Positions 2,878 through 22,218 of a stretch of DNA of 64,000 nucleotides are shown piece after piece. The notes under the pieces were generated by a model. That model was given only the letters and a program-made list of their open reading frames with translations, was not told the DNA's origin and ran no database searches. The stretch comes from Candidatus Gastranaerophilales bacterium (lineage in GTDB: Bacteria; Cyanobacteriota; Vampirovibrionia; Gastranaerophilales; Gastranaerophilaceae): assembly GCA_944325945.1 (NCBI GenBank), contig CALVBW010000023.1, positions 21,825 to 85,824 of the forward strand, in the 5' to 3' direction. How positions within the stretch are numbered: position 1 is the stretch's first letter; every line of letters begins with the position of its first letter. The position numbers and the translations under genes are program-made.

Positions 2878-2894
2878 CGGAGGTTAAGCTACTG

Positions 2895-2905
2895 CCCCCC
2901 CCCCC
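2895..2905 (-). repeat. Homopolymer tract: C11 on the plus strand, G11 on the coding strand of gene A
   Basis: Counted from the sequence (actgCCCCCCCCCCCtgagt). It lies 12 codons after an SD-ATG (ATG 2940-2942). Confidence 0.9.
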
Positions 2906-2975
2906 TGAGTGAAAAGTAGTCGTGATGCGTATTTGCGCCCATTTTTTAAACCTCCAAATATCCTGTTACTGTTTT

Positions 2976-3004
2976 ATTATATCATTTTTTATACATGTGT
3001 GCAA
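2976..3004 (-). promoter_or_regulatory. Putative sigma70-type promoter of pilin locus A (TTGCAC-17 nt-TATAAT)
   Basis: Minus strand has TTGCAC (2999-3004), a 17-nt spacer and TATAAT (2976-2981), followed by GGAGG (2951-2955) and ATG (2940-2942). Confidence 0.5.
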
Positions 3005-4188: not shown

Positions 4189-6660
4189 ATGAAAATATAC
4201 TTTAACCCCGCAATTAAATCATACGTAAATAACAGGCAGCAAAATAAACATGAGGATAATAAGAATTTAAAAGAGAGTTATTCATATAATCCTGTTGCGT
4301 ACAGAGACTATAATATATCTTTTGGTGCAAGATTATTCAGGTCTCCTGAAAATTTTTACGAACAGGATTTTAACAAAGAAGGTATGCCGAAAACTTTGCA
4401 CCGGTATATTTACAACCCCGACAATTACAGCTTCAGAAAAACAATACCTCCGGCTCAGGCAATGAAAGAGGTTTTTGGCTCTATTTCAGGCATGCAGACA
4501 CTGGAAGAAGTGAAAGCGGCATTCCCTGACGAACCGTTATTTGCTGATTTGCATTCAAAATCATCAAGAAAAGCAAGAACAGGTCTGCTGGGCGAATTGG
4601 CACTCGTTCGTGAGGATGAGTTCTATGCCGGTAAATCTTTGTTTAAAAACGGTAAAGATGATCTTGGAATGTATATTTTGAAAAAGATATATGTTGAAGG
4701 TAAAACTTTAAAAGAAATAAATAAAGATTTCCAAAGGGATAAAAGTGTTGTTTACAATGGTTTGAGCGATATTCAATATACGGATGTTAAAGCGTTCGGT
4801 ATTAAGTTCCCTAAACGGGATTTTTGGAAGTCTTTTATTGCAACGCGTGAAGATTTTCCGTATGTTTATATCCCCAGAACAACAGAAGTAAGTAAATCTT
4901 CTGCACCGTCACATATTCATCGTGAAAATCCGGTAAAATATACTCCTAAAAAACGCTTTGAAGATTTGAAAGATTGGGAAATCGACAAAATTACCGATGC
5001 AATGCTGGAAGGTATGGGGGATAGAAAAGAAACTGAAAGACTTTTGAAAAAACGTAATTTACAAGATACTGAATCCCTGAATTTCGTTGCTAAATATATG
5101 GGTGAAATAAATTCTGTTGTGTTGGAAAAATTACATGTCTCAGAAGAAATGAAAGAATTTTTTGACAACTATGACAATTTAACTAAAACTCAGAAACAGA
5201 AATTCAAAGATTATTGGAAATCTCCTGAAACAAGAGAATTACGTTCACTTGTAATGTCGTCTACAATCAGATTTTTCTTTGATGTTTATGGTGTTGACGG
5301 CAACAATGAAGAATTTCAGGAGCTTTTGGAATATGCCCGCGGTATAAAAGCCAAAAGAGAAGCTCAGGAGCTTGAACATAATCGTATTCAAGCTGAGTAT
5401 GATGAAATGTTTAAAGAGCTTGATATGGCAGAACAAAATGAATTACCTAAAGAAGATATCAAAGAAGCACCGCAAATGACTTTTGATCAGCATCTTGAAA
5501 AAGAAGCAAAAAAATACAACGGTAAAGTATATACTTTTGTTGTTAAAGATGGTGTAAAAATTTCTATTGTGGCTAATCTTGCAGAATTAATGGCTCAAAA
5601 ATTCGCAAGTGAATATAGATTTTTACCAAATGCTTATGCAAAACAGTATACCAAGTTTGTATTAAATCATCATAAGGTTAATGACGATTATATGCTGTCT
5701 TTGTTATATAAAGTTGATAATTTGTTAGATCATGGCGATCTTTTATCCAATAAGCAATTATCTGATGATCCCGAAGAAAATAAAAAGTTAAATATGAATT
5801 ATGCCGAACAGATAAAAGAACAGCTTATGCCTGAAGAAAAAGTTAATTCTATAACTCAAGAAGTTTACAAAGATTTTGTGAAAAATAATAAAAAAACTTA
5901 TGATATAGCTACACAAACAATGATGGAGCTTGTTGTAAGGCTTATGAATTCTGAAGATAAAAGTGGTGATATTTCAGACGATATACAAAAGTTGTTGTCA
6001 GGCGATGAAGATGTAAATATAAAAATATCAGATATCTTAGATGTTGATTTTGTGGATATGTTACATAAAAACACATTAAGGAAAAGTAAACTTTTGAGAA
6101 GACATGATATCGCGTTTTTAAACCCTGAACAAATTTCTACAACGCTAAAGATGGCAGGATTTACTGATTTGTCTGTTGAAGATAAAAAATTTGTTGAAGA
6201 TACAATGGCAAAATATCAACAACCTTTGAATAATAAAGAGATAAGAAAGATAACCTACAAAATTATAGATAACCTGGTTAATTATCACACTGAAAAATCT
6301 GTTATACTGCAAGAACCTTATACGTTTTTATATAAAGCCGTTCAAAAAAATATAGAAAAGTATCCTGAAATCAAATCTTACCTTGTACAAACTTTGCAGA
6401 GATCATATGTACTGCCCCAAAATACTACTTTGCGGTATTTTATAGATGATAAAGCTGATAAGAATTTGTTAGAGGCTAAAACTGAAAGATTTATTATCGA
6501 ATTGATAACTAATGAGCCCGAAGTGGTTAGTCTGATGGCGTCAATAGATATGGAAAATATGGAAAAATATATTAAACCTTTTGATTACAATCTTTTTAGA
6601 AAAATGTGCGAATACAGACTTGTTGCATCACAATATTTTGCAAAAGCATCTAAAAAATAG
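4189..6660 (+). CDS. Large K/E-rich hypothetical protein (823 aa) with an N/Q-rich N-terminus and ISFGA motif
   Basis: ORF track; SD-like AAAGGAAG upstream of the ATG. No recognisable domain and no signal peptide. Confidence 0.7.
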   Translation: MKIYFNPAIKSYVNNRQQNKHEDNKNLKESYSYNPVAYRDYNISFGARLFRSPENFYEQDFNKEGMPKTLHRYIYNPDNYSFRKTIPPAQAMKEVFGSISGMQTLEEVKAAFPDEPLFADLHSKSSRKARTGLLGELALVREDEFYAGKSLFKNGKDDLGMYILKKIYVEGKTLKEINKDFQRDKSVVYNGLSDIQYTDVKAFGIKFPKRDFWKSFIATREDFPYVYIPRTTEVSKSSAPSHIHRENPVKYTPKKRFEDLKDWEIDKITDAMLEGMGDRKETERLLKKRNLQDTESLNFVAKYMGEINSVVLEKLHVSEEMKEFFDNYDNLTKTQKQKFKDYWKSPETRELRSLVMSSTIRFFFDVYGVDGNNEEFQELLEYARGIKAKREAQELEHNRIQAEYDEMFKELDMAEQNELPKEDIKEAPQMTFDQHLEKEAKKYNGKVYTFVVKDGVKISIVANLAELMAQKFASEYRFLPNAYAKQYTKFVLNHHKVNDDYMLSLLYKVDNLLDHGDLLSNKQLSDDPEENKKLNMNYAEQIKEQLMPEEKVNSITQEVYKDFVKNNKKTYDIATQTMMELVVRLMNSEDKSGDISDDIQKLLSGDEDVNIKISDILDVDFVDMLHKNTLRKSKLLRRHDIAFLNPEQISTTLKMAGFTDLSVEDKKFVEDTMAKYQQPLNNKEIRKITYKIIDNLVNYHTEKSVILQEPYTFLYKAVQKNIEKYPEIKSYLVQTLQRSYVLPQNTTLRYFIDDKADKNLLEAKTERFIIELITNEPEVVSLMASIDMENMEKYIKPFDYNLFRKMCEYRLVASQYFAKASKK

Positions 6661-9024: not shown

Positions 9025-9825
9025 TTATAGCCACGGATAGTCATCCGGTATTTTCCAGCCGCTTTTTTTGATAACACTGCCGCAACCTCTGTATAAAGTA
9101 GTATTTGAATTATTTTCATTATAGCAGTCAGATTTATTGTTGTTTAATGTGGCGGACTCATTATAGAATAAAAATTTTCCGTCTTTCGCGCTTAAAATCA
9201 TCCAAAAAATATCTTTACCGAAACAATTAGGGGACGAAAAACCATTTAAATCAACATCAAAAGATATATTAGTATAATCAAAATACTTACATGACCCATC
9301 ATCATTATATTCCTTACAAGAGGAATTATCTAACAACATACGGATTATTACATTATTAGAAAGCAAAAAAATTCTGCCTTCAAGATTTCGAGATTCAACC
9401 GCGCCATTTGGGTAGGAAGTAGTAATTCCCACCTCCCTGTAAGAAGTATACCCGAAATCTTTTTGGATTTTTAAATTTGGAGCAAGGTAATTATCAAAAA
9501 CATTATTAACGAAATCCTCTTTGTTAAAACTTGTATCATCAGTGTGAATTCCGCTTGCGGCTTTAGACATCCAGGTAGAAGGGTCGCCATGTTCAACCTG
9601 AGCCATTTGTAACGCCTGCGATAAAATTGAATATGTTTGTTTTAGTTTAACTTCAAACTGCTTTTTCTGATAATTGCTAACCAACGTCGGGATCGTCATA
9701 GCAGCCACAACTCCGATTATGCCGAGGGTTATCAAGACTTCAGCGAGGGTGAAGGCGGGTTTTTTAGAAGATACTAAGTTACTAAGGCAGTAAGGCACTA
9801 AGAATTTACTGTGAACTTCGCTCAC
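9025..9825 (-). CDS. Prepilin-type protein, paralog B
   Basis: Conserved (GTG)SEVHSKFLVPYCLSNLVSSKKPA-FTLAEVLITLGIIGVVAAMTIPTL; pilin-like DVDLNGFSSPNCFGKDIFWM; C-terminal GWKIPDDYPWL. The ORF track extends to TTG 9870. AGGA lies 7 nt before GTG 9823-9825. With a C10 tract, the ATG at 9923 would be in frame. Confidence 0.8.
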   Translation of the reverse strand: MSEVHSKFLVPYCLSNLVSSKKPAFTLAEVLITLGIIGVVAAMTIPTLVSNYQKKQFEVKLKQTYSILSQALQMAQVEHGDPSTWMSKAASGIHTDDTSFNKEDFVNNVFDNYLAPNLKIQKDFGYTSYREVGITTSYPNGAVESRNLEGRIFLLSNNVIIRMLLDNSSCKEYNDDGSCKYFDYTNISFDVDLNGFSSPNCFGKDIFWMILSAKDGKFLFYNESATLNNNKSDCYNENNSNTTLYRGCGSVIKKSGWKIPDDYPWL

Positions 9826-9874
9826 TAATTTTCCTATACCTGAGACGCTAAAACAGTTACCCCAAGCCAATTTC

Positions 9875-9883
9875 GGGGGGGGG
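9875..9883 (-). repeat. Homopolymer tract: G9 on plus, C9 on the coding strand of gene B
   Basis: Counted from the sequence (tttcGGGGGGGGGcgact). It lies 13 codons after the SD-ATG at 9921-9923. Confidence 0.9.
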
Positions 9884-9945
9884 CGACTATCTGAACCGCT
9901 TTTTGCACAACCTTTTTCAACATATCAACTCTCCTTTTTTCTTTT

Positions 9946-9974
9946 ATTAAATATTATTTTGCATATTTTGTCAA
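9946..9974 (-). promoter_or_regulatory. Putative sigma70-type promoter of pilin locus B (TTGACA-17 nt-TTTAAT)
   Basis: Minus strand has TTGACA (9969-9974), a 17-nt spacer and TTTAAT (9946-9951), then AAGGAGAG and ATG. Confidence 0.5.
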
Positions 9975-9980
9975 GGCATT

Positions 9981-10014
9981 TTAAAATAGAAAGGCCCTCG
10001 TCGGGCCTTTCTAT
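9981..10014 (-). terminator. Rho-independent terminator after the 95-aa ORF
   Basis: AGAAAGGCCC-tcgtc-GGGCCTTTCT, with a T-rich run on the minus strand. Confidence 0.6.
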
Positions 10015-15085: not shown

Positions 15086-15135
15086 AAGTTCATTACAGGA
15101 GAAAAAATATGGGAAATAAAGAGTTTAAAAATCTC

Positions 15136-15144
15136 GGGGGGGGG
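15136..15144 (+). repeat. Homopolymer tract G9 on the coding strand of gene C
   Basis: Counted from the sequence (atctcGGGGGGGGGcgact). It lies 9 codons after ATG 15109-15111. Confidence 0.9.
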
Positions 15145-15196
15145 CGACTCCTCTAAGTAGGCAGGGCAAGGGTTCTGGCGATATACGTTGGAAAAA

Positions 15197-15236
15197 GATA
15201 CTAAGATACTATGGCACTAAGATAGTAAGAGGTAAC
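15197..15236. repeat. Tandem 8-bp array GATACTAA GATACTAT GGCACTAA GATAGTAA GAGGTAAC, an inverted counterpart of the pilin-leader array at 15566-15600
   Basis: Read directly. The reverse complement contains TCTTAGTGCC and CTTAGTATCTT, matching the conserved leader. Confidence 0.7.
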
Positions 15237-15536
15237 AGTCGGATTAGTAAATCCGACTTACAATATGTCATCCTGAACTGCCTGAGGCAGGACAACACAC
15301 TGAACATTGGTGGGACTTACCATGTCATCCTGAACTTGTTTCAGGATCTCAAAAGATGCACCCCCGCCCCCAGAATTTCAAACACTCGCAAGCTTATGTT
15401 GAAATTCAACCCCCGCCCTCAAGGGGTGAGGGTAAGCCCCTTGAGCGAAGCTCACAGAAAACACACACCTCACTTTACTCACCTCACTCACTCTAGTCAC
15501 GTTAAACAAGAGACCCTGAAACGAGTTCTGGGTGAC
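15237..15536. repeat. Mosaic of short palindromic repeats inside the stop-free leader of gene C
   Basis: AGTCGGATT-agta-AATCCGACT (15237-15258), GTCATCCTGAACTGCCTGAGGCAGGAC (15267-15293), GTCATCCTGAACTTGTTTCAGGATCTC (15324-15350), CCCTCA-agggg-TGAGGG (15416-15432), GAGACCCTGAAACGAGTTCTGGGTGAC (15510-15536). Confidence 0.8.
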
Positions 15537-15542
15537 AAAGAT

Positions 15543-16310
15543 GTGTGCGAAGCTCACAGTAAATTCTTAGTGCCTTACTGCCTTAGTAACTTAGTATCTT
15601 CTAAAAAGACCGCGTTTACCCTTGCGGAGGTTTTAATAACCCTCGGCATAATCGGAATTGTAGCAGCAATGACAATTCCGACGCTTATATCAAATTATCA
15701 GAAAAAAATTACTGTTTCAAAATTGCAAAAAGCACATTCAACACTTAGTAATATGACTAAGCTTTTGTATGCTGACGGTGTATACAATGCTTTTTCGGGA
15801 ACTGTATCTTCTGAGAGAACCGAACAATTTTTTAATTCATATGTTTTACCGTATTTTAAATCTCCCGTTGTATACAAGGACCGTGTTTGTCCGTATACGG
15901 GCACCACAGAGGACTGTTTTCCTTTTAAATATCCTAATAATGATGTCGTAAATTCTAATGTTAAGACTATTTGGAATTACGGACGTATATATTTTACAAC
16001 ATCTGATAAGACTTCTTATTTTATAAATATAATGAAGTATATTGACCCGGACAACCCCGAGGACGGTCGTGAGTATAGAACTTCTCCCGAAGTTTGGGTT
16101 GATTTGAACGGAGCAGACGGACCAAATACTATGGGAAAAGATATTTTTTATTTCAAAACGGATTTTTCTAAAGGTCTTGTTATGAGTTACTGTGCCTCCA
16201 ACAGTTATGAGTATATAAACAGGGACTGTTCCAAAGATGGATATGGCTTTTGCTGCGCGGCAAAAATAATGCTCGACGGCTGGAAAATAAAAGACGATTA
16301 CCCGTGGTAA
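15543..16310 (+). CDS. Prepilin-type protein, paralog C
   Basis: (GTG)CEAHSKFLVPYCLSNLVSSKKTA-FTLAEVLITLGIIGIVAAMTIPTL; WVDLNGADGPNTMGKDIFYF; C-terminal GWKIKDDYPW. The ORF track opens at TTG 15336, and the frame is open back to 15144. Confidence 0.8.
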   Translation: MCEAHSKFLVPYCLSNLVSSKKTAFTLAEVLITLGIIGIVAAMTIPTLISNYQKKITVSKLQKAHSTLSNMTKLLYADGVYNAFSGTVSSERTEQFFNSYVLPYFKSPVVYKDRVCPYTGTTEDCFPFKYPNNDVVNSNVKTIWNYGRIYFTTSDKTSYFINIMKYIDPDNPEDGREYRTSPEVWVDLNGADGPNTMGKDIFYFKTDFSKGLVMSYCASNSYEYINRDCSKDGYGFCCAAKIMLDGWKIKDDYPW

Positions 16311-21198: not shown

Positions 21199-21972
21199 TT
21201 AATTTTTATATTCCTCATCAAGTTCATAAGGTTCGTAATGAAGTTTTCCGTCTTTCATAAATGTATAACTTGTATTATATAGGGAAGTTGAATCAGGATA
21301 AATACCTAAATCAAAAGTGTCTGCTCCCAGCTGGTTGGGACCGGCAGGACCATTAACATCTATAATAATCTGACCGCATCGAGGTGTGGTATAATAAATT
21401 ATTTCTTGTTCACCTGTTTCTTCATTGATTATAGGATTCCCCGCTTCATCTTTTTTTATCGCTGTGTATGTATAGTTACAATTACCTTGATAATTAAACC
21501 TTTGTACCATTATTCTCATGCCATTTTTTAATACGGCAGTTGGGGCGTAATACATGGTCTTACCATAGGTTACACCATTGTTATATTTTTTTTGCTCAAA
21601 TTTTATAGTCTCAGGCCAACAACTTTTATCGCCTGTATTACAAATTTTGGTTACTGATAAATTTTGAGTTAATAATTCCAATATTTCTAAATGAGATAAG
21701 TTTAAGCTGAATATATCACGATAACTGCTAAAACCATTCTGTGCCATTGTTATTTGTACGGCATTTTGTATTATTGAATACCCCGTTTTTGCCTGATTTA
21801 CAAGCTCTTTTTCTTTATAATTGGCAACAAGAGTTGGTATCGTCATAGCCGCCACAACGCCGATTATGCCGAGGGTTATCAAGACTTCAGCGAGTGTGAA
21901 GGCGGTTTTTTTAGAAGATACTAAGTTACTAAGGCAGTAAGGCACTAAGAATTTACTGTGAGCTTCGCTCAC
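21199..21972 (-). CDS. Prepilin-type protein, paralog D
   Basis: (GTG)SEAHSKFLVPYCLSNLVSSKKTA-FTLAEVLITLGIIGVVAAMTIPTL; IIDVNGPAGPNQLGADTFDL. The ORF track extends to TTG 22017. With a C10 tract, the ATG at 22070 would be in frame. Confidence 0.8.
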   Translation of the reverse strand: MSEAHSKFLVPYCLSNLVSSKKTAFTLAEVLITLGIIGVVAAMTIPTLVANYKEKELVNQAKTGYSIIQNAVQITMAQNGFSSYRDIFSLNLSHLEILELLTQNLSVTKICNTGDKSCWPETIKFEQKKYNNGVTYGKTMYYAPTAVLKNGMRIMVQRFNYQGNCNYTYTAIKKDEAGNPIINEETGEQEIIYYTTPRCGQIIIDVNGPAGPNQLGADTFDLGIYPDSTSLYNTSYTFMKDGKLHYEPYELDEEYKN

Positions 21973-22021
21973 TAATTTTCCTATACCTGAGACGCTAAAA
22001 CAGTTACCCCAAGTCAATTTC

Positions 22022-22030
22022 GGGGGGGGG
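22022..22030 (-). repeat. Homopolymer tract: G9 on plus, C9 on the coding strand of gene D
   Basis: Counted from the sequence (atttcGGGGGGGGGcgact). Confidence 0.9.
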
Positions 22031-22092
22031 CGACTATCTGAACCGCTTTTTGCACAACCTTTTTCAACATATCAATTCTCCTTTTTTCTTTT

Positions 22093-22121
22093 ATTAAATA
22101 TTATTTTGCATATTCTGTCAA
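22093..22121 (-). promoter_or_regulatory. Putative sigma70-type promoter of pilin locus D (TTGACA-17 nt-TTTAAT)
   Basis: Same sequence as locus B. It is divergent from the groES upstream region. Confidence 0.5.
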
Positions 22122-22191
22122 GTTTTTTTGAATAATTAATTTTTCCTTAACTTTTTTAAAAAATTGTGAATTCTGTATTATAAATATATTA

Positions 22192-22218
22192 GAGATTCTG
22201 AAATAAGTTCAGAATGAC
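22192..22218. repeat. Palindromic repeat unit GAGATTCTGAAATAAGTTCAGAATGAC in the groES 5' region
   Basis: Read directly. Same family as 19112-19137. Confidence 0.8.

Follow-up and report, generated by a model that had tools for sequence, protein, structure and literature searches.

Four prepilin-type genes, here called loci A, B, C and D, in a 64-kb stretch of DNA from a Candidatus Gastranaerophilales bacterium (contig CALVBW010000023.1; the whole stretch analysed is called the window) are probably simple-sequence contingency loci, in which slipped-strand changes in the length of a G/C homopolymer would switch translation of a pilin-like protein on and off. Gastranaerophilales are non-photosynthetic relatives of Cyanobacteria from animal guts. 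The window has a GC content of 36% and holds only four G/C homopolymers longer than 5 nucleotides (nt), at 2895–2905, 9875–9883, 15136–15144, and 22022–22030. All of them lie 9–13 codons past an ATG with a Shine–Dalgarno (SD) sequence and upstream of a prepilin-type gene, and their assembled lengths are 11, 9, 9, and 9. Each locus is one base out of frame as assembled and is referred to as OFF; tract lengths of 7, 10, or 13 would put each of the four in frame (ON). The tract observation was confirmed as real and far from chance. An earlier reading of the same letters (the sequence-only reading) had extended the logic of locus A to the other three paralogs with 10 as the ON length; in-silico translation agrees with this frame logic, while the base differs, as B and D carry C9 rather than a G run on the coding strand.

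The anatomy of locus A was read on the minus strand. Its TATAAT (2981–2976) is preceded by the TG of an extended −10 element and is the top promoter-like site in a local scan, with 10/12 matches; the promoter is kept in a sister species (L124, L129). The ATG is followed by 12 codons (MGANTHHDYFSL), an A, eleven G residues (2905–2895; G11), CAG, and a TAG stop (2891–2889). In-silico translation at tract lengths from 7 to 13 showed that the ATG frame at G7, G10, and G13 runs without a stop into ...SSLTSGHAEPVSASHNKEIPKLVRNDKYVSETHSKFLVPYCLSNLVSSKKAA/FTLAEV... (a slash marks the prepilin cleavage site), and that the remaining lengths yield a product of only 15–30 amino acids (aa). The first pilin-frame start codon of the locus as assembled is a GTG (2809–2807), and no GGAGG-like SD sequence is found upstream of it in the locus A sequence. 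The promoter, SD sequence, ATG, 12 codons, G11, and TAG described by the sequence-only reading were all recovered on rereading, as was its stop-free link from the ATG to the pilin frame through G10, which G7 and G13 provide likewise; the GTG, which it had described as having no obvious SD sequence, was also found to lie within a repeat hairpin.

The proteins of loci A–D match models of the pilin N-terminus. All four score above the curated cut-off of PF07963 (23.6, 22.4, 22.2, and 21.3 bits, with 23.6 for protein A; cut-off 21.2), and they reach 18.6–20.7 bits with TIGR02532 (cut-off 16.3), for which protein A is separately listed at 19.1 bits. The cleavage/methylation motif followed by a hydrophobic helix with Glu at +5 is present (FTLAEVLITLGIIGVVAAMTIP), and the mature domains share a mutual identity of only 16–28%. 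At the window loci, position −1 is Ala (KKAA/F, KKPA/F, KKTA/F) and not Gly, and the ON-state leader would be 57 to ~170 aa long (68 aa at A, ~170 aa at C); the short basic leader with Gly at −1 is absent there and is present in sister species and in orthologs without a tract (MKKTG/FTLAEV). Public assemblies hold thousands of pilin homologs (5236 matches), and a Gastranaerophilus genome has been reported with pilA, pilB, pilC, pilD, and pilT (PMC5877343). The ratio of nonsynonymous to synonymous divergence (dN/dS) of mature pilin A is 0.12–0.28 against its orthologs, and open reading frames (ORFs) of 331–346 aa are intact up to a synonymous divergence (dS) of 1.8. The pilin ORF is under purifying selection and is not decaying.

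Tract lengths in other genomes were sampled in part through neighbouring genes, including those for PfkB and GroEL. Within the window species the anchor was an identical PfkB neighbour protein, so the pilin call does not bias the sample; contigs anchored on the public gene call P0001 (all G11) were discounted as biased, because P0001 is called only when the tract is OFF. Two contigs of the window species have G11 (L135, from ERZ24773323, and L136), and a third has G10 (L137, from SAMEA6814470), which shows 12 substitutions relative to the window over 2810 nt, with the tract as the only gap (one base). In the sister species the tract is G11 in L124 and L125 and G10 in L126 (SAMEA6814504, SAMEA6814507, SAMEA6814509), with the remaining 668 aligned columns identical. 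Length polymorphism among orthologs had been named as a check by the sequence-only reading, and it turned out positive, since G10 in L137 and L126 stands against G11 in their relatives. Other lineages carry G9 (L139) or G11 (L140), a different species-level genome carries G9 with the same frame logic (L067), and G13 is inferred from the N-terminus RGGGGSS of P0069.

Naturally occurring ON alleles are also found among the proteins of public assemblies. In at least 14 A-type protein clusters, the called protein begins at the upstream ATG (MGANTH..YFS.RGGG...), crosses the tract in its Gly codons, and continues into the pilin, and there are ON alleles of the B/D type (..AVQIVAPP..; P0033, P0081, P0082, P0086) and of the C type (..GGGATP..; P0148, P0149, P0154). 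ON and OFF N-termini are mixed inside single clusters of 90% identity. The arrangement of ATG and tract recurs in related genomes, and a pilin-frame stop occurs in none of the leaders examined, as would be anticipated from the sequence-only reading. In P0008, P0050, and P0146 the Gly run is broken by Val or Arg (N-termini RGGVGSS, RGGRGSS); apparently the homopolymer is interrupted in these alleles, which would be locked ON.

The leader frame is itself under selection. From the tract to the cleavage site, the pilin frame is free of stops in all 11 leaders of OFF alleles, as compared to 1–15 stops in the other frames (0 versus 5 and 9 at locus A). At locus C, composition-matched shuffles keep such a frame open with a probability of 0.0002; the corresponding value is 0.001 in L067 and 0.03 at locus A. 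Locus C has a stop-free leader of 470 nt from G9 to the Phe at +1 (15615), its pilin ending at 16310, and its strains show three leader architectures (470, 482, and 434 nt), all of them 2 mod 3 and stop-free, with 11–16 stops in the other frames. Upstream of the tract, six lineages share the same segment length of 13 codons. The ATG frame stands out there with the largest share of synonymous differences (33% versus 19% and 13%) and with the most variable third positions; the upstream segment thus looks translated. The sister species has a leader of only 23 aa, MGVNTHYSYISFRGGGTSLTSCG/FTLAEV, which ends in ...SSLTSCG/FTLAEV with the canonical Gly. No start codon is present between its tract and FTLAEV, and therefore the only call for L124 and L125 (P0031, G11) begins at an internal Met past the transmembrane helix. 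On six independent lines, the idea that the tract gates pilin translation is supported.

The long leaders are built from repeats. Contrary to the sequence-only reading, in which VSETHSKFLVPYCLSNLVSSKKAA belonged to the conserved pilin N-terminus, this segment is part of a dispersed repeat mosaic that is absent from the sister species with the 23-aa leader; VSETHSKFLVPYCLSNLVSSKKAA and both palindromic repeats represent short modules that occur in dispersed copies. The module types comprise the hairpins GTGAGCGAAGCTCAC, ATTCCGAA..TTCGGAAT, ATGCTGAA..TTCAGCAT, and GTCATCCTGAAC..GTTCAGGATGAC, and an 8-bp TTAGTnnn array. The locus A leader contains hairpins at 2854–2874, 2819–2839, and 2794–2810 and a fourfold TTAGTnnn array at 2757–2785; an example of a leader-spanning peptide predicted for its ON-state product is ...SLRGGGSSLTSGHAEPVSASHNK. 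Outside coding sequence, modules are found in either orientation in the window and in further Gastranaerophilales contigs, and L092 has them as 99-bp tandem units. Copies within pilin leaders are in frame without exception; they are shuffled between strains and are absent from the sister-species orthologs. Repeats have accordingly spread into the leader-coding region, where only frame-preserving arrangements survive, and this mosaic is further evidence of ribosome passage through the leader. For the genome-collection scans, a first pattern (TTAGTnnnTTAnTnnnTTAGTnnnTTAGT) was too degenerate, giving 119 matches that were mostly chance or tandem repeats; the relevant ones (L067, L092, L110) come from metagenome-assembled Candidatus Gastranaerophilales genomes. 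A second scan with the tract and its 3' flank returned two loci, and an exact 32-mer of the leader array had no match in the JGI metagenome set.

Over ~300 nt (9753–10010 versus 21900–22160), loci B and D have a common 5' cassette that is 96–100% identical from the promoter through the tract, leader, and N-terminal helix, and their identity falls to about 50% beyond the helix. This suggests gene conversion or duplication of a cassette that placed the same 5' control region onto different pilin bodies. The features of the four loci are collected in Table 1.

Table 1. Features of the four pilin-like loci and sites of the repeat modules (window positions unless a contig is named)
Feature	Positions	Strand	Details
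Locus A promoter	2976–3004	−	−35 TTGCAC 3004–2999, 17-nt spacer, extended −10 TGaTATAAT 2984–2976
Locus A Shine–Dalgarno GGAGG	2951–2955	−	8-nt spacer to ATG; kept in all A-type loci
Locus A upstream ORF as assembled	2889–2942	−	ATG 2942–2940 to TAG 2891–2889; product MGANTHHDYFSLRGGGQ, then stop
Locus A G11 homopolymer, candidate frame switch	2895–2905	−	ATG frame joins pilin frame at G7, G10, G13
Locus A leader, tract to prepilin cleavage site	2738–2894	−	157 nt; pilin frame stop-free; repeat modules
Locus A GTG, ORF start as assembled	2807–2809	−	start in mechanical ORF list and public gene call P0001; within repeat hairpin
Mature pilin-like protein A	1733–2737	−	FTLAEVLITLGIIGVVAAMTIP..., 334 aa + stop; PF07963, TIGR02532
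Locus B	9875–9923	−	ATG 9923–9921, 13 codons, coding-strand C9 9883–9875; OFF; ON at C7/C10/C13; pilin 9753–9025
Locus C	15109–15614	+	ATG 15109–15111; G9 15136–15144; OFF; ON at G7/G10/G13
Locus D	22022–22070	−	ATG 22070–22068, coding-strand C9 22030–22022; OFF; pilin 21900–21199
Module sites	2757–2874; 1578–1601; ~22190–22215; 15195–15600; L092:1–2600; L110:5000–5260		

Under the contingency-locus reading, transcription would start from a strong sigma-70-type promoter and translation from the SD-preceded ATG (2942–2940 at locus A), and the ribosome would read the G/C homopolymer within the coding sequence of a prepilin (class III) leader peptide. With G10 (or G7/G13), the ATG frame would run via the long leader into a type-IV-pilin-like protein, and the leader would presumably be cut by prepilin peptidase. 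With G11 or G9, a peptide of 15–29 aa and no pilin would be made, locus A offering no credible alternative start. Slipped-strand mispairing during replication would gain or lose one G, resulting in heritable and reversible ON/OFF states per cell and per pilin, the four pilin-like proteins being antigenically distinct on this reading. Since the four loci differ strongly in their C-terminal domains, independent switching would yield a combinatorial surface repertoire. The translational phase variation by slippage that the sequence-only reading had proposed is supported by the G10 and G11 alleles, the proteins called in the ON state, the stop-free leaders, and the dN/dS of 0.12–0.28; we infer the slippage mechanism, with its rate and reversibility, and the cleavage of the long leader by prepilin peptidase.

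Several points weigh against this reading. Locus C has G9 in 10/10 neighbour-anchored contigs, despite single-nucleotide polymorphisms adjoining the tract, locus D has C9 in 5/5, G11 recurs among the A-type OFF alleles of at least five lineages that stand more than 1 in dS apart, and all four window loci are OFF. The G10 and G11 lengths that differ between relatives come from single, possibly low-coverage contigs and could in principle be miscalls. The leaders of 68 aa (A) and ~170 aa (C) with Ala at −1 are atypical for substrates of prepilin peptidase, and in L134 and L067 an internal promoter and ATG may provide a second start that is independent of the tract and possibly leaderless. The tracts of this family span 9–11 residues (13 inferred), as compared to a range of 9–20 between strains for the pilC tract of Neisseria (PMC5953494). 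The predominance of G11 at locus A is at odds with the strong deletion bias of Campylobacter jejuni, in which G11 changes to G10 at about 4x10^-3 per division (PMC3401435). It is possible that mutation bias and selection against an ON consensus trap each locus one step from ON, giving uniform lengths.

The same uniformity is what a recoding explanation would lead one to expect, in which the out-of-frame length is selected and stable and a low level of pilin arises by RNA polymerase stuttering or a ribosomal shift on rare GGG/CCC codons. G10 in the DNA would then be a high-expression allele and not the sole ON state, and recoding may coexist with DNA slippage. Sampling regardless of the pilin call gave the same out-of-frame length in 10/10 contigs for C and 5/5 for D. 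G11 is retained across dS 0.9–1.8 while the protein is under purifying selection, the leader frame has been preserved despite the turnover of modules next to a constant G9, every assembled length is exactly one base above or below an ON length, and the G11 predominance that conflicts with the C. jejuni deletion bias (PMC3401435) would fit here. However, the shift needed would be +1 at A and −1 at B, C, and D, and in-frame alleles exist in the DNA itself (G9, G10, G11, an inferred G13, and interrupted tracts that would be locked ON). Nor did we find a frameshift stimulator: no conserved hairpin occurs 5–9 nt past the tract, with none at all in the sister species, the locus A fold compares with shuffles at z = −0.75, and an Rfam search at gathering threshold gave nothing in the tract region, its sole match in the window being a tRNA at another place. 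Transcriptional slippage in bacteria, where known, mostly uses runs of A or T. As no stimulator was found, the direction of the shift differs, and in-frame and interrupted alleles exist, recoding is ranked second and is considered unlikely. We give an equally low probability to a two-tier, rheostat-like control of the pilins, in which selection would hold the tracts one base off, slippage at the RNA level would supply low output, G10 would be a rare high-output state, and the leader would be a tolerated landing zone for repeats.

The upstream ORF could instead be a separate regulatory leader peptide, acting possibly by SD sequestration or by stalling on Gly/Pro codons, with the pilin started from the GTG at 2809 or from another internal start and its frame not gated by the tract. 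Public gene callers do start P0001 at this GTG, and the SD region GGAGGTTTAA (2943–2955) is complementary to the invariant post-tract segment TTAACCTCC (2881–2889, SLTS codons), as it is also in L124, L129, L133, L139, and L140. The resulting 9-bp helix encloses the upstream ORF and the tract and is present in both the minimum-free-energy and the centroid fold; it lies beyond covariation testing because both of its arms are invariant. As an explanation, this SD/anti-SD helix was not adopted, since the fold is no better than the shuffles. An internal promoter and ATG do occur in the leaders of L134 and L067. On the other side, the GTG lacks an SD sequence and sits in a repeat hairpin, the sister species has no start at all between tract and cleavage site, many assemblies have one continuous ORF, and a separate peptide would leave unexplained why the pilin frame is stop-free back to the tract in every leader. 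We therefore regard a separate leader peptide as improbable.

A sequencing or assembly artefact, in which the true length would be 10 everywhere and the genes ON, is rather less probable still. Homopolymers of 9–11 G are error-prone, several contigs have a low coverage (2.7–8.5x, from contig names), contig ends frequently coincide with the tract or its vicinity (L137, L138), and every apparent error is exactly ±1 from 10. The lengths nevertheless recur in independent samples from at least two series (BRZ, ONAT22), with G11 at A in at least 8 contigs and G9 at C in 10. Within the same assemblies, the lengths deviate by +1 at A but by −1 at B, C, and D, which is no systematic bias, and ON and OFF calls stand side by side in one study. 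The least probable explanation, that the pilin paralogs are decaying genes inactivated at a mutational hot spot, would account for the out-of-frame state of all four window loci and of most sampled alleles. It was rejected on the dN/dS of 0.12–0.28 and on the ORFs that stay intact to dS 1.8; the leaders are moreover stop-free, and in-frame alleles occur within the same species.

Some further observations concern the tracts and leaders. Public contigs end in or within ~50 nt of the tract in L137 and L138 (inside it in L138), and L126, L139, and L140 are short contigs; an assembly graph that is heterogeneous at the tract could produce such ends, and so could breaks at the adjoining dispersed repeats. 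On the plus strand of the window, the homopolymer is C11 at 2895–2905 and G9 at 9875–9883, 15136–15144, and 22022–22030. A G9-CGACT motif is common to B/D and C in the same plus-strand orientation, with the genes on opposite strands, and one may speculate about a strand-dependent (replication) bias in the equilibrium tract length. In L129–L132 (P0130), P0024, P0054, and P0097, the codons for HYD (CAT TAT GAC) make an ATG in the G11 frame, giving MTTFLPGGGGSSLTSCG/FTLAEV; the window has CAT CAC GAC and no G11-frame ATG there. Lineages with this ATG have starts in two of three frames, and their output could be graded rather than binary. A perfect TTGACA-17-TATAAT lies inside the leader-coding region of L067 (minus strand, ~240 nt past G9) and of L134 (930–1000), and an ATG 9 nt past this internal promoter opens a short canonical prepilin leader (MNYGFKKFFA/FTLAEV), which is not found at locus A of the window. 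The leader of locus C contains a 45-nt inverted repeat (15195–15239 versus 15556–15600, 78% complementary), an inverted copy of the TTAGT array. An invertible segment at this site was rejected, as the opposite-orientation allele was seen in 0/10 strains and the repeat is an inverted module copy.

The neighbours of locus A are retained in its orthologs, with a pfkB-family kinase gene upstream and a gene for a dihydroorotate-dehydrogenase-B-like iron–sulfur subunit downstream. An ORF of 823 aa (4189–6660, plus strand), divergent from pfkB, adjoins locus A here and also in L120 and L135–L137, and has no Pfam match at E <= 0.01.

If switching is confirmed, the window would hold four independently switchable pilin-like genes in 64 kb, and a widespread uncultured gut lineage would diversify its surface stochastically, with phage, host immunity, and colonisation bottlenecks as the likely pressures. 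Two aspects go beyond the textbook case, namely out-of-frame lengths that are unusually uniform and leaders that are built from repeats and reach ~170 codons. There are also practical consequences. An OFF tract causes automatic annotation to misplace the start or truncate the gene (P0001, P0031, P0133), and tract lengths, being readable from existing metagenomes, can potentially serve as a phenotype marker.

Homopolymer contingency loci are textbook material for a few cultured pathogens (Neisseria, Haemophilus, Campylobacter, and Helicobacter), and work on phase variation in gut commensals has centred on DNA inversions. Our searches of the literature on Melainabacteria and Gastranaerophilales turned up no account of repeat-mediated phase variation. 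Programmed slippage and frameshifting, as in Thermus dnaX and the transposases of insertion sequences, usually takes place on A/T runs or on slippery heptamers with stimulators. Like such sites, the loci described here have two ORF segments split by an out-of-frame homopolymer, here of very uniform length at each locus, with the downstream frame open and selected; unlike them, they have no stimulator that we could find, the direction of the shift varies by locus, and in-frame DNA variants exist. The leader modules can be compared with Rickettsia palindromic elements, which are in-frame inserts in protein-coding genes. Both are short dispersed palindromic repeats, intergenic as well as within ORFs, of which only frame-preserving copies persist, whereas the modules here accumulate in a leader that is expected to be cleaved and form mosaics that vary between strains.

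In Neisseria pilC the tract lies within the part coding for the signal peptide. The pilC genes of Neisseria gonorrhoeae and Neisseria meningitidis undergo phase variation through a G/C run (Jonsson et al. 1991, as cited in PMC5953494). As there, a 5' in-frame G (C) run would toggle a pilus-associated protein by one-base slippage, in more than one copy per genome. PilC, however, is a Sec-exported tip/assembly factor of the PilY1 type and not a pilin, whereas here it is the pilin-like subunit itself whose class III leader contains the tract, and repeat modules have enlarged this leader. No homology to PilC/PilY1 was found, as Pfam and NCBIfam scans gave only pilin/pseudopilin N-terminal models. 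The pilC comparison drawn by the sequence-only reading therefore stands as an analogy of mechanism and not as relatedness, the proteins being unrelated.

The polyG/C tracts of C. jejuni, which have a modal length of about 9, switch at 10^-4 to 4x10^-3 per division, and the lengths of 9–11 in the AT-rich genome studied here match the modal range of those contingency tracts (PMC3401435). Common to both are an AT-rich genome, long G/C runs that are nearly exclusive to (here candidate) phase-variable genes, single-unit changes, and several independent surface loci (PMC3401435). In C. jejuni, however, the genes are mostly for glycan and flagellar modification and the rates have been measured, while here the genes are pilin-like and belong to an uncultured, non-photosynthetic sister group of Cyanobacteria. 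The type of mechanism, if correctly assigned, is thus a known one, that of the Neisseria pilC or Campylobacter poly-G contingency locus. What is new is the lineage, the position of the tract inside the class III leader of a pilin-like subunit, the leaders built from repeats, and the uniform lengths one base above or below ON.

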